Below are positions 9,429 through 18,857 of a stretch of DNA of 64,000 nt, piece by piece. This DNA comes from Kiritimatiellia bacterium (GTDB lineage: Bacteria > Verrucomicrobiota > Kiritimatiellia > CAIKKV01): contig JAWOJA010000010.1 of NCBI GenBank assembly GCA_046484345.1, forward strand, positions 1,811 through 65,810. The letters run 5' to 3'. How positions within the stretch are numbered: the stretch's first letter is position 1; every line of letters begins with the position of its first letter. The notes beneath the pieces were generated by a model. The model worked only from the letters and a program-made list of their open reading frames with translations. It made no database searches and had not been told where the DNA came from. Both the position numbers and the translations under genes were made by a program.

Positions 9429-10163
9429 ATGAAACCCTGGTTCGAAGAACTCGATTACCGCCGCACGCCGATGGGCGAACTGGTTCTCCAGCGACGCCGG
9501 ATCGCCGAGATGGGCGACGCCGAGGCGTACGAGGTCAAGCTCAACAGCGAGTACCTCATGTCGAGCCTCTTCCACGAGGCGGAAGTGGCGCTGGCCGACC
9601 TGGCCCTGGCCCGCCTCCCGGGGTCGGACTGGGAGGTGGTCGTCGGCGGGCTGGGCCTCGGGTATACCGCCGCGGCGACCCTCGCGTTCAAACAGACGAA
9701 ACGTTTAGTCGTCGTCGAAGCCCTCGAGCCCGTCATCGATTGGCACTGCAAGGGGCTGGTGCCCAACGGCCCGCTTTTGTCCGACGACCCGCGCTGCGTC
9801 TATCACCACGCCGATTTCTTCGCATTGGCGCGCGGAAGCGGGTTCGACCCCGCAACGCCCGATTACCGGTTCGACGCCGTGCTCCTGGATATCGACCACA
9901 CCCCGAAGCACCTGCTGGCGGTCGGGCACACCGATTTCTACACCGAGGCCGGCGTGCGGCGGCTCGCGCGGTTTATCAAGCCCAACGGCGTGTTCGGGCT
10001 CTGGTCGAACGAGCCCCCGGATGACGCCTTCCTGGCCATCCTGACCCGGGTGTTCGGTCGCGCCGAGGGCCACGTTGTCGCATTCGACAATCCCCTCCAG
10101 AACAAACCCGCCTCCAACGGCATCTACGTGGCGGGGGGAGCCCTGTCTCACGGGGCCGTATAA
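9429..10163 (+). CDS. Spermidine/spermine-synthase-fold (PABS) aminoalkyl transferase-like protein, lacking the N-terminal tetramerisation domain
   Basis: 244 aa. VVVGGLGLGYTAAATLA resembles the GGGDGG SAM-binding loop. AVLLDIDHTP resembles the DSSDP catalytic motif of aminopropyltransferases. Confidence 0.6.
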   Translation: MKPWFEELDYRRTPMGELVLQRRRIAEMGDAEAYEVKLNSEYLMSSLFHEAEVALADLALARLPGSDWEVVVGGLGLGYTAAATLAFKQTKRLVVVEALEPVIDWHCKGLVPNGPLLSDDPRCVYHHADFFALARGSGFDPATPDYRFDAVLLDIDHTPKHLLAVGHTDFYTEAGVRRLARFIKPNGVFGLWSNEPPDDAFLAILTRVFGRAEGHVVAFDNPLQNKPASNGIYVAGGALSHGAV

Positions 10164-10849
10164 ATCAGGTACAATCCGCCCAGCAGGACCAGCCCGCCGC
10201 AGACCTTTTTCAGGATCACCGCGCCCCGGGAGTTCTCGGTCCAGTTCAGGTAATGCTGCACGACTTCCGTGAAAGTGCCGGCGAACACGATAACCGAGCA
10301 GTGGCCGATCCCGTAGAACAACAGCAGAAGAATGCCATAGGGCAGATTGGTCGCCGCCAGCCGGAAGGAGACCGCCAGCATCGGCGCCATGTAGGCGAAG
10401 GTGCAGGGTCCCAACGCGACGCCGAAGACCAGCCCCAGGACCAGGGCCGCCAGCATCCCCTTGCGTTTCAGGCCGGGTTGGGCCGCCCCGGGCATGGGCA
10501 GGCGGATGACGTCGAGCAGGTAGAGGCCGACCACAAAGAAAATGAGGGCCACCCCGTAGTTCCCCCAGCGCCCGACATCACCCATCATCCGTCCGGCCGC
10601 CGCCGTGAGCGCCCCGATCAAGCCGATGGTGACCAGGATGCCGGCGGAAAACAGAAGCGAGATCGCGAAGGCCCGCCGGGTCGGCATCTGGCCCTGCTGG
10701 TCAATGAACCCCACGATCAGCGGGATGCTGGCCAGATGGCACGGACTCAGCAGGATGCTGAGCACGCCCCAGACGAAGGCGGCGCCCAGCGCCACGCCGG
10801 CCGATCCTTCAACCGCGCGGGAGAGTGCCGTAAATAATTGTTCCAGCAT
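10148..10849 (-). CDS. ccdA: Cytochrome c biogenesis / thiol-disulfide transporter CcdA (DsbD transmembrane-domain family)
   Basis: 233 aa from ATG 10849 (GGGAGG RBS). Polytopic membrane protein with the two conserved Cys in TM regions (LLSPCHLASIP ... ALGPCTFAY). Confidence 0.8.
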   Translation of the reverse strand: MLEQLFTALSRAVEGSAGVALGAAFVWGVLSILLSPCHLASIPLIVGFIDQQGQMPTRRAFAISLLFSAGILVTIGLIGALTAAAGRMMGDVGRWGNYGVALIFFVVGLYLLDVIRLPMPGAAQPGLKRKGMLAALVLGLVFGVALGPCTFAYMAPMLAVSFRLAATNLPYGILLLLFYGIGHCSVIVFAGTFTEVVQHYLNWTENSRGAVILKKVCGGLVLLGGLYLIYTAP

Positions 10850-10864
10850 ATAGCCTCCCACAGG

Positions 10865-11353
10865 TTAAAACTCGACGCCCAATTCCTTCCACTTGCCCAG
10901 AATGTCTTCCTTGCCGTAGAAACCCTCATGCCGGAAGAGCTCCTTGCCGTCGGCGCCGAAGAAGATCTGCGTCGGGATCATGTTGACCCCGTATTTTTTC
11001 CCCTCCTCCGGATTTTCCCATACATCGATAAACGTGATATCGAGTTTCCCGGCGTAGGTTTTCTTGAGGTCTTCCAGGATCGGCGCCATCAGCTTGCAGG
11101 GAATGCACTTGGTCGCGCCGAGATCCACCAACCGGGGCAGGGCCTTCCCCTGCTCAACCGCTGCCGGCACAACGGCAGAAGCGACGCTCGCCGCCGGCGC
11201 GTTCCCCGCGGCCTTGTTTTTCCACGCGCTTTTGGCCATCAGCACCCCGACAACCGCCAGGGCCAGAACGATCCACATCCACTTCGACGACCCGCCGCCG
11301 CACCCGCCGCCGCCGCACCCGCAACTCCCGCCCTGCTTTTCACAATTGCTCAT
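10865..11353 (-). CDS. Membrane-anchored thioredoxin-fold protein (TlpA/ResA-like, CxxC = CIPC) with a Cys/Gly-rich N-terminal tail
   Basis: N-terminus MSNCEKQGGSCGCGGGGCGGGSS, then a TM helix (WMWIVLALAVVGVLM), then a thioredoxin domain with TKCIPCK. Confidence 0.75.
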   Translation of the reverse strand: MSNCEKQGGSCGCGGGGCGGGSSKWMWIVLALAVVGVLMAKSAWKNKAAGNAPAASVASAVVPAAVEQGKALPRLVDLGATKCIPCKLMAPILEDLKKTYAGKLDITFIDVWENPEEGKKYGVNMIPTQIFFGADGKELFRHEGFYGKEDILGKWKELGVEF

Positions 11354-11363
11354 AGGTGTGCTC

Positions 11364-11597
11364 CTAAACTAAATGCTTCTTGATATCGTCCGCGCTCAAC
11401 ACCCGGCCCGCGCTCTTGACCTGGCCGTCCACGACTAGCGCCGGCGTGGTCATCACGTTGAACTTCATGATGTCCATGATCTTCTCGACCTTCTCGATCT
11501 GGGCCTCAATGCCCAGCGCCTGGACGGCCGCTTGCGTGTTCGCGAACAGCGTCTTGCACTTCGGGCAGCCTGTTCCCAGTATCTGTATTTTTTTCAT
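11364..11597 (-). CDS. Small thioredoxin-like protein (redox-active disulfide protein 2 / TM0996-like), CPKC active site
   Basis: 77 aa, MKKIQILGTGCPKCK... This family typically accompanies COG0701 permeases and ArsR. Confidence 0.75.
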   Translation of the reverse strand: MKKIQILGTGCPKCKTLFANTQAAVQALGIEAQIEKVEKIMDIMKFNVMTTPALVVDGQVKSAGRVLSADDIKKHLV

Positions 11598-14500
11598 GTT
11601 TCTTTCCTTCCGGTTAAAATTAAATAAAGGCAGGGCATCAGGAACAGCGCAACCAGGATTTCCATGGTCAAGCCTCCGATGGCAGCCACAGCCATGGGCT
11701 TGAGCAAGTCGCCCCCCTCGCCGAAGTTCAGGGCCAGCGGGACAAAACCGGCGATGGTGCTGACGGTGGTCATGACACGCGGCCGCAGCCGGATCTTCGC
11801 GGCCTTCAGCACCGCCTCGAAAGGCCGCAAGCCTTCCGTGACCCGCAACTCTTCGGCGAAGCTGAGCAGCAGCACGCCATCGTTGATCGCCGCCGCAATC
11901 ACGATGAAGACGCCGATGGCCACGGTGGCGCCCACGGGCATATGGGCAAGCCCGAGGGCGTAAACCATGCCCGCCAAACAGAACGGAACCGAAATCAACA
12001 TGATCAACGGCAGGCGGTAGCTCTCGAACTGGATGGCCAGCACAACAAAGGCGAAAAACAGGGCGAACCCGAGGATCAAGACCATGGTGCGGGCGTTTTC
12101 GGCCATCATCTGCGCCTGGGCGCCCATGGCGAATGACACGCCCGAAGGCAAGGGCATGGCCGCGACCGCCTCCCGCGCCCGGCGCGTGGCTTCCCCCACG
12201 CTGATTCCCGCGGCATCCGCGCGGACAATAACCTGCTTGATCTGGTTCTCGCGGGCGATCTCCACGGGTCCCACCGCCCGGCGGACTTCCGCCAGGTCGC
12301 TCACGTAGAGCGGCCGGCCTCCCCGCGATTCCAGAACGAGATTCTCCAAATCCTCTTTGCCGGCAATCTTCGCCTCGGGCACCATCACGCGGATATTATA
12401 ATATTCGCTGCCCTCCCGGTAGGCGGTGGAAACCACGCCGCCCACCAGGCCGCGCAGAGTGTCCGCCACCTTCCCGACGGGAATGCCCAGGGCCGAGGCG
12501 CGAGCGCGGTCCACATAAACGCGGTATTCCGGCTTCGTCATGTCCATCGAAATATTGACGCCGCCCAGGCCGGGCGTCTCGCCGAGCCGGGCCGCCGCCT
12601 GCCGGGCGAAGTCATAGATCGGCAGCACATCGGCGCCCTGAACCTTGATTTCGACATCCTGCAGCCCGATCTTGCGGATTCCCTTGATCGGCATGCTCAT
12701 CACCGGAAGCTTCGCGCCGGGCGCCACGACCTTTCCGACCAGCGGCTTGATCTTTTCAATGAAGGCTTCCGTGCCGATAGTTCGTTCTTTTTTGGGAACA
12801 AGCTGGATGTTCACCTCGCCCTCCTGGGCGATCTCATAGGTGGCCAGACCCCAGACCCGCCCGCCCGCCATCGTGAAGACGCTCCGCACCTCCGGCAGGC
12901 CCCGGACCCGCTCTTCAACCTGCGCCAGGATCCGGTCGGTTTCGCCGACAGCGGTTCCGGCGGGCATCTTGAGCTTCACCATCACGCGGCCATCATCCAC
13001 CTTGGGCAGGAATTCCGAGCCCACCCGGGGCATCAACCACCCCGCGAACCCGAGGGCCGCCAGGAACAGGACCAGCACGGCCCACCGGAAACGCAACACC
13101 GGGCGCAGGCTCGCGCCGTAGGCGTCGGTCGCCCGTTCCACGATCCGGTCAAAGCCCTTCGCGGGCAGGCCCGCCGACGCGCTCCGTCTGACCCGCAGCA
13201 GCCGGTCCGCCAGGAAAGGGGTAAGCGTGGCGGCTACCAAGTACGATATCAGAACGATTCCGGCCACCACCAGCACCAGTTCCTTGAACAGCAACGAGGC
13301 CATGCCCGGCACAAAGAGAAAGGGCAGAAAGATGACCAGGAACGCCACGGTGGAGGCGATCATGGCCGGCCCGACTTCCGCCGTCGCCCGGACGGTCACG
13401 TTCCCGCCGGGCTCGCGGCCGGCAACCTCCTCCTCGTGCCGCATCCGCGTGATGTTCTCCAGCACCACGATGGAGTTGTCGAGGATCACGCCGAGCGCCA
13501 CAACCAGCCCGCCTAGCGAAAACAGGTTCAGCGAAAACCCGGCCAGCCGCATGAAAAAGAAATTGGCCAGCAACGTCACCGGCAGCGCCACGAGCATCAC
13601 GACGATCTGGCGCCAGTGCCCGAGAAAGAAATAGGTGACAAGAATGACCAGGATGGCGGCCAGCACGGCCGAGTCGCGCACGCTCAGAATCGCGCCCAGG
13701 ACATAGTCCCCCTGGCTCTCCACCACGCCGAATTCGATGTCCGCCGGAATTTCGGCGCGCAACGCGGCCAGCTTCGCCTTCACCGCCTGGGTCACCCGGA
13801 CCGTGTTCGCCTCCGCCTGCTTCAGCACGTTGACCTTCACGCACGGCCGGCCGTTGAAACGGGTGTTGACCCGCAGCTCCTCGTGCGCGTCCTCAACCGT
13901 GGCGACGTCGCGGACATAAACGAGGGCGTCCTGATTGCCGCGCGCAACGGCCGTGTCGCGGATTTCGTCAAGGTTCTCAAACTCCCCCATGGTGCGGGCG
14001 ATTATTTCCTTTGTCTCCACCGTCACGCGGCCGGCGAAAATCTGCCGGTTCCCGCTGTGCAGCGCCTCGGCTACGCGCTCCGGAGAGACCCCCCGGGCAT
14101 TCATGCGCTCGGGATCGAGGTGGACCCGGATTTCCCGCTTGAGCCCGCCTATTACCTCCGCGCCGGCCGTTCCGTCAACGGCGCTCAGCCGGTCCACCAG
14201 CCAGTTGTCGGCCCAATCCCGGAGCCAGACCAGGCTGCGCCGGTCGGAGGCGAGGGTGACCTCCATGACCGGCAATTGCGAAGGGTCGGCCTTCATGATC
14301 ATGGGAGGCTCCATGCCCGGGGGAAGCTGCGGGTTCACACGCCCCATGACCGCCATAACGTCCTGGTAGGCGACATCGACATCGGTGCCGTAGCGGAAAT
14401 TGACCAGCAGGGTATACATGCCCTCGATGCTGGAGGAATCGAGGTAGTCCAGGTCGTCCACCGTGGCCATGGCGCGTTCGACGGGCTCGGCGAGGTTGGT

Positions 14501-14680
14501 CTCGATTTCCTCGGGCGTGGCCCCGCGCCACCAGACATGGATCTTCACCATCGGGTAGGTGATTTCGGGCAGGTAGTCGACGTCCAGCCGGGCCATTCCA
14601 AACCAGCCGAGGACCATGGCGGCAACGGACAGCACGGTCATGGCCACCGGATGCTTCAGGCTCAGCTCCGTGATTTTCAT
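11594..14680 (-). CDS. RND efflux transporter permease subunit (AcrB/HAE-type)
   Basis: 1028 aa, 12-TM RND architecture. TM4 region LGVILDNSIVVLENI is HAE-like rather than heavy-metal-efflux-like. Confidence 0.9.
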   Translation of the reverse strand: MKITELSLKHPVAMTVLSVAAMVLGWFGMARLDVDYLPEITYPMVKIHVWWRGATPEEIETNLAEPVERAMATVDDLDYLDSSSIEGMYTLLVNFRYGTDVDVAYQDVMAVMGRVNPQLPPGMEPPMIMKADPSQLPVMEVTLASDRRSLVWLRDWADNWLVDRLSAVDGTAGAEVIGGLKREIRVHLDPERMNARGVSPERVAEALHSGNRQIFAGRVTVETKEIIARTMGEFENLDEIRDTAVARGNQDALVYVRDVATVEDAHEELRVNTRFNGRPCVKVNVLKQAEANTVRVTQAVKAKLAALRAEIPADIEFGVVESQGDYVLGAILSVRDSAVLAAILVILVTYFFLGHWRQIVVMLVALPVTLLANFFFMRLAGFSLNLFSLGGLVVALGVILDNSIVVLENITRMRHEEEVAGREPGGNVTVRATAEVGPAMIASTVAFLVIFLPFLFVPGMASLLFKELVLVVAGIVLISYLVAATLTPFLADRLLRVRRSASAGLPAKGFDRIVERATDAYGASLRPVLRFRWAVLVLFLAALGFAGWLMPRVGSEFLPKVDDGRVMVKLKMPAGTAVGETDRILAQVEERVRGLPEVRSVFTMAGGRVWGLATYEIAQEGEVNIQLVPKKERTIGTEAFIEKIKPLVGKVVAPGAKLPVMSMPIKGIRKIGLQDVEIKVQGADVLPIYDFARQAAARLGETPGLGGVNISMDMTKPEYRVYVDRARASALGIPVGKVADTLRGLVGGVVSTAYREGSEYYNIRVMVPEAKIAGKEDLENLVLESRGGRPLYVSDLAEVRRAVGPVEIARENQIKQVIVRADAAGISVGEATRRAREAVAAMPLPSGVSFAMGAQAQMMAENARTMVLILGFALFFAFVVLAIQFESYRLPLIMLISVPFCLAGMVYALGLAHMPVGATVAIGVFIVIAAAINDGVLLLSFAEELRVTEGLRPFEAVLKAAKIRLRPRVMTTVSTIAGFVPLALNFGEGGDLLKPMAVAAIGGLTMEILVALFLMPCLYLILTGRKET

Positions 14681-15741
14681 GACGGCGGCCTCCCCTTTTC
14701 GCCCATGACCCGAACGGGCAGGCCCTCCTTCAGCGCTTCCTGGCCCCGTGTGACGACTCTTTCGCCCGCCTCGAGCCCGCTCTCGACGGCGATAAAGCCG
14801 CCCGCCTCCAGGGCCACCTTCACGGGGCGGCGCACGGCGGTTTCCCCGCTCAGCACAAAAACCACGTTCTCGCCGCCGGGGAGCACCACCAGCGCCGCCT
14901 CGGGCGCCACAACGGCGTCCTTCACGGTGCGCAGGGGCGCTTCCACGCGGGCAAACAGGCCGCTCAGCAGCCGGGCCTCCCCGCGCAGCTCCGCTTCAAC
15001 GGTCACCGTCCGGGTGGCTCGTTCCAGTTCCGGGTAAATACGAACGACCTCCGCCGGGATGCCGCGCCCGGGATAGGCGTCCAGCTTCACCCGCACGGCG
15101 GCGCCGGCGTGGATGAACGGCATATCTTTTTCGGGAACAGGAAAGCGGACCACCAGGCTGGCGGGATCGTACATCTCGACCAGCGGCGTGCGCGGCGAGA
15201 CGTAATTGCCGTCGGCGATCCAGATTTTGGACACGACTCCCGCCCAGGGGGCCTTGATTTCATAATCGCCCGCGCCCGTTTCCATGGCCGCCACCTGGGC
15301 CTCCGCGCGCTTCAGGTTGGAACGGGCCGCCTCGATCTGCTCGCCAGCCAGCGAGCCGCTCTTCACCAGCTGCTCCACCCTCTTGTACTCCGCCGCCTGC
15401 CGCCGCAACTCCTCGCTGGCGGCCTCCAGGGCCGTGTCCGCCATGCGGCTGCGGCCCACCCGGGCCAGCAACTGCCCGGCCTCGACGCGGTCGCCTTCGC
15501 GCACCGCGCACGCCATGATCGGGCCCTCCGCGGGCGAGGCCATGCGGGCGACTTTCACCGGTTCGATCGAGCCGGTGTAAAGCATCACGCGGGACAAATC
15601 CCGCTTTTCCGCCATAACGGCCTGCACCACGACGACCGGCTTCTTGGCCGGCTCTGTCCTGGAAGATTCCGTTTTTCCGCAACCCGCCGCCAGCAGGGCC
15701 AGCGCGAGGCCCAGCACCGAAATGGAAACCTGTTTTTTCAT
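14677..15741 (-). CDS. RND efflux periplasmic adaptor (membrane fusion protein), lipoprotein
   Basis: Signal peptide plus lipobox (LLAAGCG), followed by a biotinyl/lipoyl-like hairpin and beta-barrel regions typical of HlyD/AcrA proteins. Its end overlaps the RND permease start. Confidence 0.85.
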   Translation of the reverse strand: MKKQVSISVLGLALALLAAGCGKTESSRTEPAKKPVVVVQAVMAEKRDLSRVMLYTGSIEPVKVARMASPAEGPIMACAVREGDRVEAGQLLARVGRSRMADTALEAASEELRRQAAEYKRVEQLVKSGSLAGEQIEAARSNLKRAEAQVAAMETGAGDYEIKAPWAGVVSKIWIADGNYVSPRTPLVEMYDPASLVVRFPVPEKDMPFIHAGAAVRVKLDAYPGRGIPAEVVRIYPELERATRTVTVEAELRGEARLLSGLFARVEAPLRTVKDAVVAPEAALVVLPGGENVVFVLSGETAVRRPVKVALEAGGFIAVESGLEAGERVVTRGQEALKEGLPVRVMGEKGRPPS

Positions 15742-17072
15742 GGAATCCCGTCTCCCACCGCCAGTTTACGCCGGGCGTCGGCCAGGACCAGGTCCGCAAA
15801 AGCGCGGGCCTGGGCCGTTTCCTGAAGCACCTGGGCGGATTGGGCGTCCAACACGTCCGTCAGCGTGCCCTTGCCCAGGTCATACTTTTCCTTGATAAGC
15901 CGAAAGCTCTCCCGCGCCTGCTCAACCGATTGAGACAGAATCGCCACCCGCTCGCGGGCGGAGGTGATGTCTGCCAGGGCAGTTTCAACCTCATACCGGA
16001 CTTGCAGTTCCAGCTTGCGCACCCGTTCCCGCGCGGAGTTAAGCTTGGCGGTCTGTTCGCGGACACGGGCCGCCGTGAGGCCGCCTTCGAACAGCGGCCA
16101 TTCCGCCACAAGCCCGATGCGGCCCACATCCTGCGCCTCGTCCGCGCCCGCCGGCCGGACGGCCGGATCCGGCATCCAGCGCTCGCCGTAGGCGGCCTGG
16201 AGCGAGACGGTCGGCCGGTAGCCGGCGCGGGTCGACTCCACCGCCCGCTCCTGGGCGGCCACGCTGTGCCGGGCCGCGGCATAATCGACTCGCCGGGCAA
16301 GCGCCTGCCGCAGGCAGGCCGCTGCGTCCGGACACGACGGAGCCTCAAGAGCCCGAAGCTCCCCGGCGATTTCGGGGGACTGGGGCGACTCCCAGCCCAG
16401 AACGGCCGCGAAGGCGCGCTGCTGCGCCGTCAAGCCGTTGCGCTCGCGGCTGAGAATCTCCCGCAGGGCGGCCAGACGCACTTCCGCGCGCAACAGATCC
16501 ACGCGCGCCGCCTTTTGCGCGTCCATTTGTTCGGCAATGGAGCGGCGCTGTTCTTCCATGGCCTGAACGGCCGATTCAACGGAGGCAATCACCTCTTTCT
16601 GGGCCAGCAAGCCGTAAAACAGAGCCGTCACATTGTAGATGAGGCCTTCGCGGGTCCGCGCCAGCTGGCCTTCCGCCGCCAGCCGGAGCAACTCCGTCCC
16701 TTTGATTTCGCTCGTCACGCGGCCCCCGGTGTAAAGCGGCAGGCTCAACACCAGCTCCGCGCCCCACACATCGGGGCCGAAGACGCCCGCCTCACCGTTG
16801 GCGGTGGCCGGGAAAAGCCGCTGATCTTCCGTGGAGGCGTCATAGGCGGCGCGCGTCTTCAGCACCGGAAGGCGGGCCGACCGGGCCTGTTCGGCCCGCC
16901 CCGCCGCCTCGTCCACCCGCCATTCACTCTCCAACGCATCGGGATTTCCGGTCAGAGCCCGCTCAATGGCCCGCGACAAGGTCAGCGGTTCGCTCGTCAC
17001 TTGCGCCATGGCTGTGACAGCGAACACAACGACCGCGGCAATCATAATTGTCCTGATCAGGTAATTTTTCAT
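15738..17072 (-). CDS. Outer-membrane efflux protein (TolC/OprM family)
   Basis: Real start at internal ATG 17072 (MKNYLIRTIMIAAVVVFAVTAMAQ signal peptide). Repeated coiled-coil/beta-barrel halves are typical of the outer-membrane factor family. The track ORF's 229-aa N-terminal extension overlaps the upstream permease gene and is spurious. Confidence 0.8.
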   Translation of the reverse strand: MKNYLIRTIMIAAVVVFAVTAMAQVTSEPLTLSRAIERALTGNPDALESEWRVDEAAGRAEQARSARLPVLKTRAAYDASTEDQRLFPATANGEAGVFGPDVWGAELVLSLPLYTGGRVTSEIKGTELLRLAAEGQLARTREGLIYNVTALFYGLLAQKEVIASVESAVQAMEEQRRSIAEQMDAQKAARVDLLRAEVRLAALREILSRERNGLTAQQRAFAAVLGWESPQSPEIAGELRALEAPSCPDAAACLRQALARRVDYAAARHSVAAQERAVESTRAGYRPTVSLQAAYGERWMPDPAVRPAGADEAQDVGRIGLVAEWPLFEGGLTAARVREQTAKLNSARERVRKLELQVRYEVETALADITSARERVAILSQSVEQARESFRLIKEKYDLGKGTLTDVLDAQSAQVLQETAQARAFADLVLADARRKLAVGDGIP

Positions 17073-18466
17073 CGCATGATTTCGCCAAAAACCAGCCCCG
17101 TAATGGTCGACATCAAAACAACCAGGCCGACAAAAGTCAGCGTTTTGCGCGGCCCGAGAATGGAATTGATTACGATCATGCTGGGCAGGGAAAGGGCGGG
17201 GCCGGCCAGCAGGAGCGATAGCGCCGGGCCCTGGCCCATGCCGCTGTCCATCAGCCCGCGCAAAATGGGCACCTCGGTCAAGGTCGCGAAATACATCAGC
17301 GCCCCGGTTATGGAAGCGAAGAAATTGGTCCAGACGGGCCAGATGGCGGACAGCCAGCCGGGCAGGGCCGCGCCCTCGCCAACAAATCCCCAGAAGACGG
17401 CCGGCGAATCCCCCACGAGCGCCTGGATCCATCGGTTGGGAACGATGCCGGCGTCGATCGAATCGGGGCTGCCCAGGAAAAATCCCGCTGCGAGAACGCC
17501 GCCGAACAGCAGCGGGAGGATCTGTTTGGTGAATCCCCAGGTCTGGTCCCGCCAATCCTTGAGCTCCGTTCCCCCGCAAAATGTGAGGCTGGCCAATCCA
17601 GCCGCCCCGGCGGCAAAAGCGGCCACCGGATAGCCGGGGAATACCAGGGCCAGAATCACGGCCGGCACGGCAGCCAGGACGATCCAGAGCAACCGCACCC
17701 GGAAGAACCGCCACAAACAACCCGCCATGAGCACGGCAAACAGGCTCGTCACCAGCCATTTGGCCTTAAATATGGCATGCCAGATCCCGGTCTGTTCGAT
17801 CGGCCTGCCCCAGTTGGCGAACACCAGGATGCCCACCATGGAAAAGAAATAGAGGGCCACCTGCCAAAGAGGGCGGTTGCCCTTTTCGTCGCCCTCCAGA
17901 AAGATATCCTGCGCTTGCGCCGCCTTCGCCCGCTCCTCTTTCAGGAAAATAAGGTGCATCAGCAGGCCAATGACCACACTGAACACAACGGCCCCGATCG
18001 CCCGGGCGACACCCAACTGCCAGCCCAGCACGCGGGCGGTCAGCACGATGGCCAGGACATTGATGGCCGGGCCCGAGTAGAGGAAGGCAATGGCCGGGCC
18101 GAGGCCCGCGCCGCGCATATAAATCCCGCCGAACAGCGGAAGCACCGTGCAGGAACAGACGGCGAGGATGGCGCCGGATACCGATGCGACGGAATAGGAG
18201 AGCCACTTCGGGGCCTTGTGGCCGAAATACTTCATCACCGCGTTCTGACTCACGAACACCCCGATGGCGCCGGCGATGAAAAAGGCCGGCACCAGGCACA
18301 ACAGGACGTGTTCGCGGGCGTACCACTTCGCCAGCTTGACCGATTCAATGAGCGCGCCCTGAAAACGGGCCGCCTCGATGGGCAGGTAATACAGGAGCGC
18401 AAAAAGTCCGATCAACACGGCGAGAATTTTAAGTTCCTTGCGACCTTCTTCGTTCACGTCCGACAC
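17069..18466 (-). CDS. Permease, COG0701/DUF318 family with a conserved CSC motif (ArsP-like organoarsenical-permease relatives)
   Basis: 465 aa, polytopic. Motif AILAVCSCTVLPLF. ATGA overlap with tolC. The start overlaps the arsR2 3' end. Confidence 0.7.
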   Translation of the reverse strand: MSDVNEEGRKELKILAVLIGLFALLYYLPIEAARFQGALIESVKLAKWYAREHVLLCLVPAFFIAGAIGVFVSQNAVMKYFGHKAPKWLSYSVASVSGAILAVCSCTVLPLFGGIYMRGAGLGPAIAFLYSGPAINVLAIVLTARVLGWQLGVARAIGAVVFSVVIGLLMHLIFLKEERAKAAQAQDIFLEGDEKGNRPLWQVALYFFSMVGILVFANWGRPIEQTGIWHAIFKAKWLVTSLFAVLMAGCLWRFFRVRLLWIVLAAVPAVILALVFPGYPVAAFAAGAAGLASLTFCGGTELKDWRDQTWGFTKQILPLLFGGVLAAGFFLGSPDSIDAGIVPNRWIQALVGDSPAVFWGFVGEGAALPGWLSAIWPVWTNFFASITGALMYFATLTEVPILRGLMDSGMGQGPALSLLLAGPALSLPSMIVINSILGPRKTLTFVGLVVLMSTITGLVFGEIMR

Positions 18467-18755
18467 TCCTCTTTGTGATCCGGATCACGCCCATTGCGCA
18501 ATCGAAAATATTCAAAATGCAAGGGGTCCGCAGCTTCAGGTAACAGCGAACGCCCTCGCGGCGCTCGCTCACGATCCCCACATTTCTTAACTCGGTCACG
18601 TGTCGCGACAGCGTCGATTTGTTCATTGGAAACAAGGGCTGAAGCTCGCACATGCACCGCTCGCCCGTGCTCAGTTGGTCCACGATCTTCAAGCGGACCG
18701 GGCTGGAAAGAGCCTTCATGATCTTGGCGCGCGCCTTGAATTCTTCCGACTTCAT
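18429..18755 (-). CDS. arsR: ArsR/SmtB-family regulator (second copy), CxC site ERCMCEL
   Basis: 108 aa. HTH motif PVRLKIVDQLSTGERCMCELQPLFPMNKSTLSRHVTELRNVGIV. First gene of the minus-strand operon. Confidence 0.8.
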   Translation of the reverse strand: MKSEEFKARAKIMKALSSPVRLKIVDQLSTGERCMCELQPLFPMNKSTLSRHVTELRNVGIVSERREGVRCYLKLRTPCILNIFDCAMGVIRITKRSVGRERRRSQGT

Positions 18756-18773
18756 CCGATTACTCTACTCTTA

Positions 18774-18791
18774 GTTGCACAACTACGCAAC
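18774..18791. promoter_or_regulatory. Candidate operator: inverted repeat GTTGC-N8-GCAAC roughly 20-35 nt upstream of the arsR2 start
   Basis: Inverted repeat seen directly in the sequence, in the position expected for an autoregulated ArsR-family operator. Confidence 0.25.
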
Positions 18792-18857
18792 AATATTTTG
18801 CGGGAATAACGACATTGACTGCCTGGCGGGACCGCTCCGCCTCCTCGACTTTCCCCC

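Follow-up and report, generated by a model that had tools for sequence, protein, structure and literature searches.

We describe an eight-gene operon on the minus strand (18755..10148) of a 64,000-nucleotide stretch of DNA from an uncultured, anaerobic Kiritimatiellia bacterium (contig JAWOJA010000010.1; hereafter the window), in which an ArsR-type repressor, an ArsP-family permease and three thiol-redox proteins are encoded together with a complete resistance-nodulation-division (RND) tripartite efflux pump. On balance, we think it probable that this is one autoregulated operon for the two-stage, envelope-spanning efflux of a thiol-reactive toxicant, which would most probably be a trivalent inorganic or organic arsenical. 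We take as established the gene content and the coupling of the genes, their conserved synteny, an operator-like element ahead of arsR and an association with arsenic-resistance (ars) genes; from these we infer the ligand of the repressor, what is transported and in which direction, and the target of the thiol relay. Domain matches in Pfam and NCBIfam place all eight genes where the initial annotation had put them and confirm its gene list, in the order ArsR, permease, outer-membrane channel (OEP/TolC), periplasmic adaptor (MFP), RND pump, small thioredoxin (Trx3), exported thioredoxin and CcdA (Table 1).

Table 1. Features of the window, with positions, strands and the matches or observations on which each assignment rests
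Feature	Positions	Strand	Size, matches and other evidence
Promoter and putative ArsR operator	18756..18800	-	TTGTTGCGTAGTTGTGCAACTAAGAGTAGAGTAATCGG, directly before the ATG; comparison of orthologous upstream regions
ArsR/SmtB-family repressor	18429..18755	-	108 aa; HTH_5 PF01022 47 bits (cut-off 22); NF033788 75.3 bits (cut-off 55)
ArsP-family (COG0701) inner-membrane permease	17069..18466	-	PF03773 ArsP_1 232.5 bits (cut-off 32.3)
Outer-membrane channel OEP/TolC	15738..17072	-	444 aa; signal peptide; PF02321 170 bits, two repeats
Periplasmic adaptor (MFP) lipoprotein	14677..15741	-	354 aa; lipobox LAAGC; TIGR01730 201.4 bits (cut-off 94.9); HlyD_D23
RND inner-membrane pump	11594..14680	-	1028 aa; PF00873 775.8 bits, full length, positions 4-1022
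Small cytoplasmic thioredoxin (Trx3)	11364..11597	-	77 aa; GCPKC; PF13192 Thioredoxin_3 92 bits; TIGR00412 111.1 bits (cut-off 62)
Exported membrane-anchored thioredoxin	10865..11353	-	162 aa; CIPC; PF00085 50.5 bits
N-terminal tail of the exported thioredoxin	11276..11353	-	CEKQGGSCGCGGGGCGGG / MSNCEKQGGSCGCGGGGCGGGSSK
CcdA/DsbD_TM-type membrane thiol-disulfide transporter	10148..10861	-	237 aa; PF02683 41.6 bits (cut-off 27.1)
Convergent gene	9488..10163	+	no Pfam match
First ArsR operon, arsR-hgcA-hgcB-arsC	839..2986	-	

Gene coupling and a putative ArsR operator

The eight genes follow one another closely. As read from the sequence, 4-nt ATGA overlaps join the permease and outer-membrane channel genes, the channel and adaptor genes, the adaptor and RND genes, and the RND and Trx3 genes. 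The arsR and permease genes overlap by 38 nt, with an AGGAG ahead of the GTG start of the latter, and the last two junctions, from Trx3 to the exported thioredoxin and from there to CcdA, leave gaps of only 10 nt and 3 nt. Judged by these seven junctions and by one conserved promoter/operator ahead of arsR, the operon appears to be a single unit, which bears out the single-operon architecture proposed in the initial annotation.

The promoter/operator emerged only from comparing orthologous upstream regions; a scan for the sigma-70 consensus found no promoter upstream of arsR and returned only weak terminator-like sites. The 100-nt upstream regions of arsR from 20 orthologous loci, among them loci that carry and loci that lack the genes for the OEP, MFP and RND proteins (the RND trio), were aligned and gave the consensus TTGTTGCAtTGTTGCGCAACaATGCgcTATAGT, including a 12-12 inverted repeat with the half-sites TTGCATTGTTGC and GCAACAATGCAA, which sits between a -35-like TTGCAT and a -10-like TATAGT. 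The window copy is slightly degenerate relative to this consensus, with a -35-like TTGCGT, the palindromic halves TAGTTGT and GCAACTA, and a -10-like TAGAGT whose end is 6 nt from the arsR ATG; the palindrome of the predicted operator reads TTGCATTGTTGCGCAACAATGCAA. The motif occurs once in the 64-kb window, against 0.12 occurrences expected by chance, and the same element heads modules both with and without RND genes. ArsR-family operators that occlude their own promoter typically have this layout, and we would expect ArsR to bind there.

Only 6-7 nt separate the end of the -10-like hexamer from the arsR ATG in each of the 20 aligned loci. With so short a distance, the arsR mRNA in these bacteria of the Planctomycetes-Verrucomicrobia-Chlamydiae (PVC) group is probably leaderless or nearly so.

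Distribution of the module and its association with ars genes

Related loci were collected in two independent samples. The first comprises genomes, one per species, found via the RND protein and mapped by tblastn (79 loci, 80-53% identity); these come mostly from uncultured Kiritimatiellia, Lentisphaerota/Victivallales, Verrucomicrobiota and Planctomycetota, and also from Zixibacteria, Anaerolineales, Brocadiaceae, Desulfobacterota and others. The second comprises metagenomes found via the permease (80 loci, 58 of them informative in that they carry enough downstream sequence).

The link to arsenic is carried by the neighbours of the module in these loci. ArsC, Acr3, ArsF or ArsG is encoded nearby in 21 of the 44 metagenome loci that have the thiol-redox and permease genes alone, and in 25 of the 37 RND loci that bear the module, compared with 4 of the 42 RND loci that lack it. 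One locus places the base module ahead of ArsR-Acr3-ArsC (L084), and in another its genes are interspersed, within a single operon, with those for ArsC, an ArsM-like methyltransferase and Acr3 (L086); close homologues of the window permease (68-86% identical) are likewise located in operons with ArsC, Acr3 and ArsM. Furthermore, equivalogs of ArsF (84.5 bits, cut-off 60) and ArsG (272.8 bits, cut-off 200) often occupy the CcdA slot in sister loci. We regard the ars-gene association of the module as strong guilt by association, and claim nothing more for it. The chemistry common to all the hints that we gathered would be that of a soft, thiophilic metal or metalloid, possibly carbon-bonded, for which arsenic appears to be the best-supported candidate.

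The ArsF/ArsG pair (NF040494, NF040495) was seen downstream of the exported thioredoxin in nine loci (L002, L003, L004, L008, L009, L010, L018, L024 and L070). Of the two, ArsG is a DsbD_TM-family member and ArsF a CxxC protein with a membrane anchor. Given their position in place of CcdA, the published 'nitroreductase plus efflux permease' assignment and a CcdA-like electron relay may be two readings of one architecture.

The complete gene set of the window, in the same order, is present in 7 of the 79 genome loci (L001, L005, L013, L014, L015, L033 and L063), and partial or rearranged sets occur in many more, across several phyla. The groups represented include Kiritimatiellia, Lentisphaerota, Planctomycetota, Zixibacteria, Anaerolineales and Brocadiaceae. 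Module genes lie within 10 kb of the RND gene in 37 of the 79, and the association outlasts rearrangement of the gene order in distant phyla (L050, L052, L056, L060 and L073). Among the informative metagenome loci, 44 of 58 carry the base module ArsR-permease-Trx3-(DGC)-Trx-CcdA with no RND gene, 10 have the RND trio exactly between permease and Trx3, and 4 show another arrangement; one locus has the window arrangement plus DUF6951 (L085). When permeases were compared by nearest neighbour, modules with and without RND genes were interleaved, the pairs L089 (with) and L096 (without) and L085 and L091 being 92% and 89% identical, respectively. Since closely related permeases differ in the presence of the pump, the trio appears to have undergone repeated gain or loss, each time at this one junction, and thus behaves as an optional cassette added to an older ars-operon module.

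Two statements of the initial annotation have to be qualified accordingly. That the RND genes are inserted in the middle of the module is supported by the 44 loci without the trio and the 10 with it at the identical junction, but the insertion is not peculiar to the window. The module was further called known but uncharacterised; it is indeed documented by Castillo and Saier 2010 (PMC2963123) and recurs in loci L084, L086 and L091-L166, but ArsP and ArsEFG are relatives that have been studied.

Four further loci (L080-L083, ~11460-14650) encode the long form of the permease with no Trx3, exported thioredoxin or CcdA; there it adjoins DUF6951, a second ArsP_1 permease (350 aa) and a long HTH_5 protein (382-494 aa), followed by ArsC and Acr3. 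Many apparent extra open reading frames in high-GC loci were wrong-frame artefacts and were discarded.

Protein components and neighbouring genes

By its full-length PF00873 match, the RND protein has the ACR_tran fold of the superfamily, a fold of 12 transmembrane (TM) helices and two large periplasmic loops, and its cognate OEP and MFP genes are adjacent, an OMP-MFP-RND synteny that is kept in most of the 79 genome loci. It falls far below the cut-offs of all of the subfamily models to which it was compared: NCBIfam RND_permease_2 (NF033617; 695.7 bits, cut-off 1250), another NCBIfam multidrug model (557 bits), the HAE-1 model TIGR00915 (488 bits, cut-off 940) and the HME model TIGR00914 (430 bits, cut-off 701). 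The best 60 matches among solved structures in the PDB are all of the multidrug type, led by 7wlv (an unnamed pump, 361 bits) and including CmeB, MdtB, MexB and AcrB (~297 bits), with none of CusA, CzcA or ZneA among these 60. TM4 reads GVILDNSIVVLEN, and the clade motif is GV(I/L)LDNSIVVLEN; the HME-type TM4 motif, as Nies reportedly set out in 2003, is DFG-DGA-VEN or DAA-VEN.

Compared with Escherichia coli AcrB (24% identity), the window protein keeps D407 (as D401), R971 and T978 (as R964 and T971), whereas D408 is replaced by N402 (Asn in 78 of 80 sequences) and K940 by N933 (Ser or Asn across the clade). The Phe cluster of the distal pocket is not conserved, with F136, F178, F615, F617 and F628 corresponding to Q, V (I in the window), G, V and N/D, and A286 of the porter domain is replaced by C280, a Cys in 74 of 80 sequences. 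Together, these comparisons indicate that the RND protein is a distinct lineage, nearer HAE-1 than HME. The TM4 motif had initially been described as HAE-like and not of the heavy-metal type; the model scores and structural matches uphold the greater proximity to HAE, but LDNSIVVLEN differs from the HAE-1 motif, and the D408 and K940 positions have changed as described above.

Module-less relatives of the pump (53-58% identical) adjoin genes for ArsR, DtxR-like regulators, PF13801 Metal_resist, DUF169 and a conserved 253-aa periplasmic protein. The last of these, with the motif FL(T/S)CxxxC and no significant Pfam or NCBIfam match, is often encoded directly after the RND gene (for example, L008 16870-17631; also L011, L014, L018, L020, L063, L115, L116, L129 and L025) and is followed by a 74-aa CMD/AhpD-like protein; both are absent from the window. 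As for the partners of the window pump, the OEP scores 164 bits against TIGR01844, below the cut-off of that model, and the MFP partially matches the CzcB family; its Cys78 is retained in 58 of 73 sequences.

The permease combines the ArsP_1 domain with a transmembrane C(S/T)C motif and is a long variant of ~460 aa, with an extra membrane segment of ~140 aa. C57, C104 and C106, the latter two forming the CSC within AVCSCTV, are invariant in 21 of 21 sequences. Yang et al. 2015 split ArsP into two clusters, and the motifs HVLLCLVPAFFIAG and LAV before CSC match their cluster 1 (PMC4435449). A protein 100% identical to the permease is annotated 'MAG: permease [Kiritimatiellia bacterium]', and exact-sequence look-ups of the window RND protein and permease found no record. 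Based on its gene context, we would expect the permease to export trivalent organoarsenicals.

ArsR belongs to the ArsR/SmtB family by its winged-helix HTH_5 domain. Its motif ERCMCEL places a C33-x-C35 pair in helix alpha-3, and a second pair, C79 and C86, lies near the C-terminus within PC(I/V/M)-x4-F-x-C. Both the CxC motif of ArsR (C33-M-C35) and the CSC motif of the permease (C104-S-C106) are thus present, as the initial annotation had it. The protein is distant from all solved ArsR/SmtB structures, its best match reaching 37 bits, with sensors of different ligands intermixed; the assignment of a ligand by structural homology was given up because all matches were at or below 37 bits and the ligand classes were mixed.

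Trx3 is a member of the MTH895/ArsE family, formerly 'redox-active disulfide protein 2'. It has no export signal, its GCPKC is conserved in 31 sequences, and in nearly all related loci its gene comes after that of the permease or, where present, the RND pump. The exported thioredoxin has an N-terminal TM anchor, signal peptide or lipobox in 25 of 25 orthologs, and CcdA has two Cys residues, C41 in TM1 and C153 in TM4, that are invariant in 17 of 17 sequences. A CcdA/DsbD_TM protein is thus encoded beside an exported thioredoxin partner, and electron transfer between the two is predicted from this anatomy, which is standard for a relay from cytoplasmic thioredoxin through CcdA to exported thioredoxin, as judged by established knowledge of CcdA and DsbD. 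Neither protein is an ArsF or ArsG equivalog: the exported thioredoxin has no match to NF040494, and CcdA scores 49.8 bits against NF040495 (cut-off 200) and is 31% identical to a true ArsG over 74 aa.

The window thioredoxin also carries a Cys/Gly-rich N-terminal tail ahead of the anchor, on the cytoplasmic side, which is found in none of the 25 orthologs; its start codon is supported by an AGGAG upstream.

The surrounding genes are unrelated to the operon. Upstream lie genes for a rhamnose mutarotase and an H+-pyrophosphatase (H+-PPase), and downstream a block of convergent plus-strand genes (an octopine-dehydrogenase-like protein, two MscS proteins and AsnB). By eye, the product of the convergent gene listed in Table 1 resembles a spermidine synthase or a methyltransferase; its 3' end overlaps that of ccdA by 16 nt (10148..10163), with no convincing intrinsic terminator between the two.

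The operon is the second in the window to be headed by ArsR, as the initial annotation had stated. The first, arsR-hgcA-hgcB-arsC, encodes an ArsR with the motif ELCACQL, a 339-aa HgcA with the cap-helix motif GINVWCAAGK and a match to PF03599 CdhD, an HgcB-like ferredoxin with a C-terminal CCGGDCCCSG tail, and an ArsC of the low-molecular-weight protein tyrosine phosphatase type; this makes the organism a putative mercury methylator. In L001, the RND cluster is followed directly by the same arrangement, and arsR-hgcAB-ars arrangements are documented for Kiritimatiellia and others (PMC11984097, PMC7438021). We considered hgcAB as a regular neighbour of the cluster and rejected this, as the genes were found in only 2 of about 166 loci, both close relatives. 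A selenocysteine (Sec) 'CU' extension at the N-terminus of HgcA, of the kind described by Haft and Gwadz, was not found (window 2480..2786, minus strand); no Cys precedes the in-frame stop upstream, and the start of hgcA is overlapped by arsR, so the window HgcA seems to be a short, non-Sec form.

Proposed mechanism, alternatives and relation to known systems

We propose that ArsR sits as a repressor on the 12-12 palindrome between the -35-like and -10-like hexamers and would be released once its Cys residues bind an inducer, giving a single transcript, as the anatomy of the operon suggests. The ArsP-type permease would transfer a trivalent (organo)arsenical, the substrate to which the gene associations point, into the periplasm. 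Judged by its architecture, the RND-MFP-OEP complex would then pick the compound up, either in the periplasm or at the inner membrane's outer leaflet, and carry it out across the outer membrane, such that a membrane-permeant species could not simply re-enter, the same logic as that of CopA plus CusCBA for Cu(I). Electrons would flow from Trx3 through CcdA to the exported CIPC thioredoxin, as is established for CcdA/DsbD relays, and the thioredoxin may serve to free periplasmic dithiols of the toxicant or to exchange them, and may pass the toxicant to the pump. We also considered that the relay keeps the Cys residues of the pump itself reduced and found no support for this idea, since RND C280 and MFP C78 do not correlate with the presence of the module.

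Several observations weigh against this proposal. The canonical ars genes arsC, acr3 and arsM are absent from the window operon, the nearest arsC being 7 kb away in the hgcAB operon. The window ArsR is not close to any characterised As(III) sensor; the second Cys of its CxC varies among orthologs (CVH in L001, CCVN in L014 and L018), and the pair that is invariant in the ortholog alignment is the C-terminal PC..C, an uncharacterised site; the classical As(III) site is a Cys pair or triad of helix alpha-3, in a motif of the ELCVCDL type. The nearest named NCBIfam models for the permease are the SO_0444 Cu/Zn exporter (100.4 bits) and SaoE (102.7 bits), and, because C280 and C78 do not co-vary with the module, a relay that services the pump is unsupported. 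Mercury is suggested by the hgcAB neighbour of the window operon and by fusions, in 11 related loci, of the exported thioredoxin with a MerB (alkylmercury lyase) domain (PF03243, 55.5 bits, cut-off 27), and sulfur by YeeE, rhodanese and TauE neighbours in some loci.

The fused MerB-like domain (L004 9252-10466, L024, L033, L070, L087, L088, L091, L094, L119, L123 and L144) is C-terminal, Cys-rich and ~270 aa long. It contains the motifs WGCCAHC and AGCFHQGFF, which we take to lie at the positions of MerB WC96ALD99 and FC159CHVHFF, respectively.

The permease matches would fit the efflux of a soft metal cation (Cu(I)/Ag(I), Zn/Cd or Hg(II)), in which the permease would be akin to SO_0444, the pump to the Cus or Czc type and the relay to ScsABCD. 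The CSC motif is common to the families of SO_0444 and SaoE (bioRxiv 10.1101/2022.07.06.499078), and the partial CzcB-family match of the adaptor points the same way, as do the DtxR-like regulators, Metal_resist proteins and CDF transporters encoded next to module-less RND relatives. We consider this unlikely nonetheless, as the permease scores lie far under the equivalog cut-offs of 300 and 325 bits, respectively, the pump lacks the HME signature in TM4 and scores lower against the HME model than against the multidrug models, heavy-metal pumps are missing from its best 60 structural matches, and the operon partners of the module are ArsC, Acr3, ArsM and ArsF/ArsG, not cop, cus, czc or mer genes. 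Alternatively, the RND trio could be a generic multidrug or solvent pump that landed in the module by chance, driven by a separate promoter and functionally unconnected with the thiol genes. Its nearest sequences are indeed HAE-1 multidrug pumps, most base modules do without the trio, and its gain or loss separates modules whose permeases are 89-92% identical; however, the insertion point is identical in all RND-bearing loci, ATGA coupling on both sides of the trio leaves no intergenic room for a promoter of its own, and the association is kept where the gene order is rearranged. The clade-wide replacement of the AcrB Phe cluster and of the D408/K940 pair likewise counts against a generic drug pump, as do the metal-type neighbours of module-less relatives and their control by ArsR- or DtxR-type rather than TetR-type regulators, and we find this explanation quite improbable.

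Reactive sulfur or selenium species (polysulfide, persulfide or selenide) would be the substrate if ArsR sensed persulfide as BigR or SqrR do. Both of these sensors rank among its best solved-structure matches (30-35 bits), it partially matches the BigR model, and YeeE/YedE, rhodanese, TauE and DGC genes occur in some related loci; yet these weak matches do not exceed those to SmtB or NolR, the Cys residues fall at other positions than the sensing pair of SqrR/BigR, and sulfur genes are far rarer neighbours than ars genes, all of which makes such a role very unlikely. The least probable of the alternatives, in our estimation, is the export of methylmercury or Hg-thiol species in conjunction with the adjacent arsR-hgcAB operon. 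Methylmercury export by methylators is an open question (PMC7438021), and both the 7-kb distance to hgcAB in the window, with direct adjacency in L001, and the thioredoxin-MerB fusions would speak for it. Against this stand the restriction of hgcAB adjacency to two closely related loci, the absence of any MerB-like sequence from the window and the fact that no MerR, MerA, MerT or MerP was noticed in any locus; moreover, the arsR-hgcAB link is itself documented as an arsenic-type association (PMC11984097, PMC7438021).

The efflux of a trivalent arsenical, which we prefer, relates the operon to several known systems. [quoted passage not shown] The window operon likewise combines these three thiol-redox families with that permease family under ArsR, but no RND, MFP or OEP was described there, and the window module stands alone, with no arsC or acr3 in its operon. 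In the works of Shen 2014 and Chen 2015, as cited in PMC4435449 and PMC9144182, ArsP of Campylobacter jejuni is presented as an efflux permease for methylarsenite and organoarsenicals. It shares PF03773, the membrane C(S/T)C motif and the ars-operon context with the window permease, which differs in its length, its extra membrane insert and its cluster-1 motifs (an extra N-terminal Cys, and LAV, not tPF, before CSC).

A parallel three-part architecture is found in ArsEFG of Shewanella putrefaciens, which Chen, Zhang and Rosen are said to have described in 2019 as an MTH895-type thioredoxin, a membrane-anchored CxxC protein and a DsbD_TM protein. Trx3 belongs to the ArsE family and true ArsF/ArsG occupy the CcdA slot in sister loci, whereas the exported thioredoxin and CcdA of the window are not ArsF and ArsG equivalogs, and ArsEFG has no RND partner. 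The two-stage logic of an inner-membrane exporter followed by a tripartite RND pump that clears the periplasm is also that of CusCFBA with CopA and of CzcCBA with ZntA or CzcD, and the exported thioredoxin may have its counterpart in CusF, a small binding protein of the periplasm. The window pump is not HME, however, its partner is a COG0701 permease and not a P-type ATPase or CDF protein, and its accessories are thiol-disulfide oxidoreductases. With AcrAB-TolC and MdtABC (HAE-1) it has in common the three-component build and, among solved structures, the highest similarity; it differs in scoring below all HAE-1 and multidrug cut-offs, in its conserved porter-domain Cys in place of the Phe cluster, and in its control by ArsR and not a TetR-type regulator.

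The hypothetical SAO locus of Clostridioides difficile and other anaerobes (Haft and Gwadz, bioRxiv 10.1101/2022.07.06.499078) has a similar set comprising the COG0701 CSC exporter SaoE, the thioredoxin-like SaoT, a DsrE-like protein and a MerB-like protein, the latter two comparable to DGC and to the thioredoxin-MerB fusions of sister loci. The equivalogs differ, as the SaoE score shows; no ABC importer, selenoproteins or double-cubane enzymes were noticed here, and SAO has no RND pump. In this comparison, we presume the Pfam entry DGC to be distantly DsrE-like.

The base module and its relatives ArsP and ArsEFG are already known, and a description of the RND-bearing form was not found in the searchable literature, nor was anything specific on RND pumps that lie within ars operons or close to hgcAB. 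No RND pump is listed in a survey that covered about 700 transporters from ars operons (PMC4435449). It is possible, and we offer this tentatively, that the window encodes the first RND tripartite exporter devoted to arsenicals in the trivalent state or to other organometal(loid)s, and with it a new ars determinant that adds an outer-membrane stage to ArsP efflux in anaerobes of the PVC group and other uncultured bacteria. ArsB, Acr3, ArsP, ArsK, ArsJ and ArsG, the known proteins of arsenic efflux, all, to our knowledge, end at the inner membrane. In addition, the periplasmic thioredoxin-MerB fusions of the module family could provide an oxygen-independent route to the cleavage of carbon-metal(loid) bonds; ArsI, the known C-As lyase, requires O2.

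The conserved operator, together with a cassette of RND genes that is either present or absent, offers a clean experimental handle on the system. If arsenicals are indeed exported across the outer membrane, this would explain how anaerobes escape the re-entry of membrane-permeant arsenicals, methylated or aromatic, that they produce or encounter, and it would give a role to the long-unexplained CcdA and thioredoxin genes of ars operons. As Kiritimatiellia and their relatives are the most abundant hgcA carriers in some lakes (PMC11984097), the system would also bear on the puzzling association, in genomes, of arsenic genes with mercury methylation.

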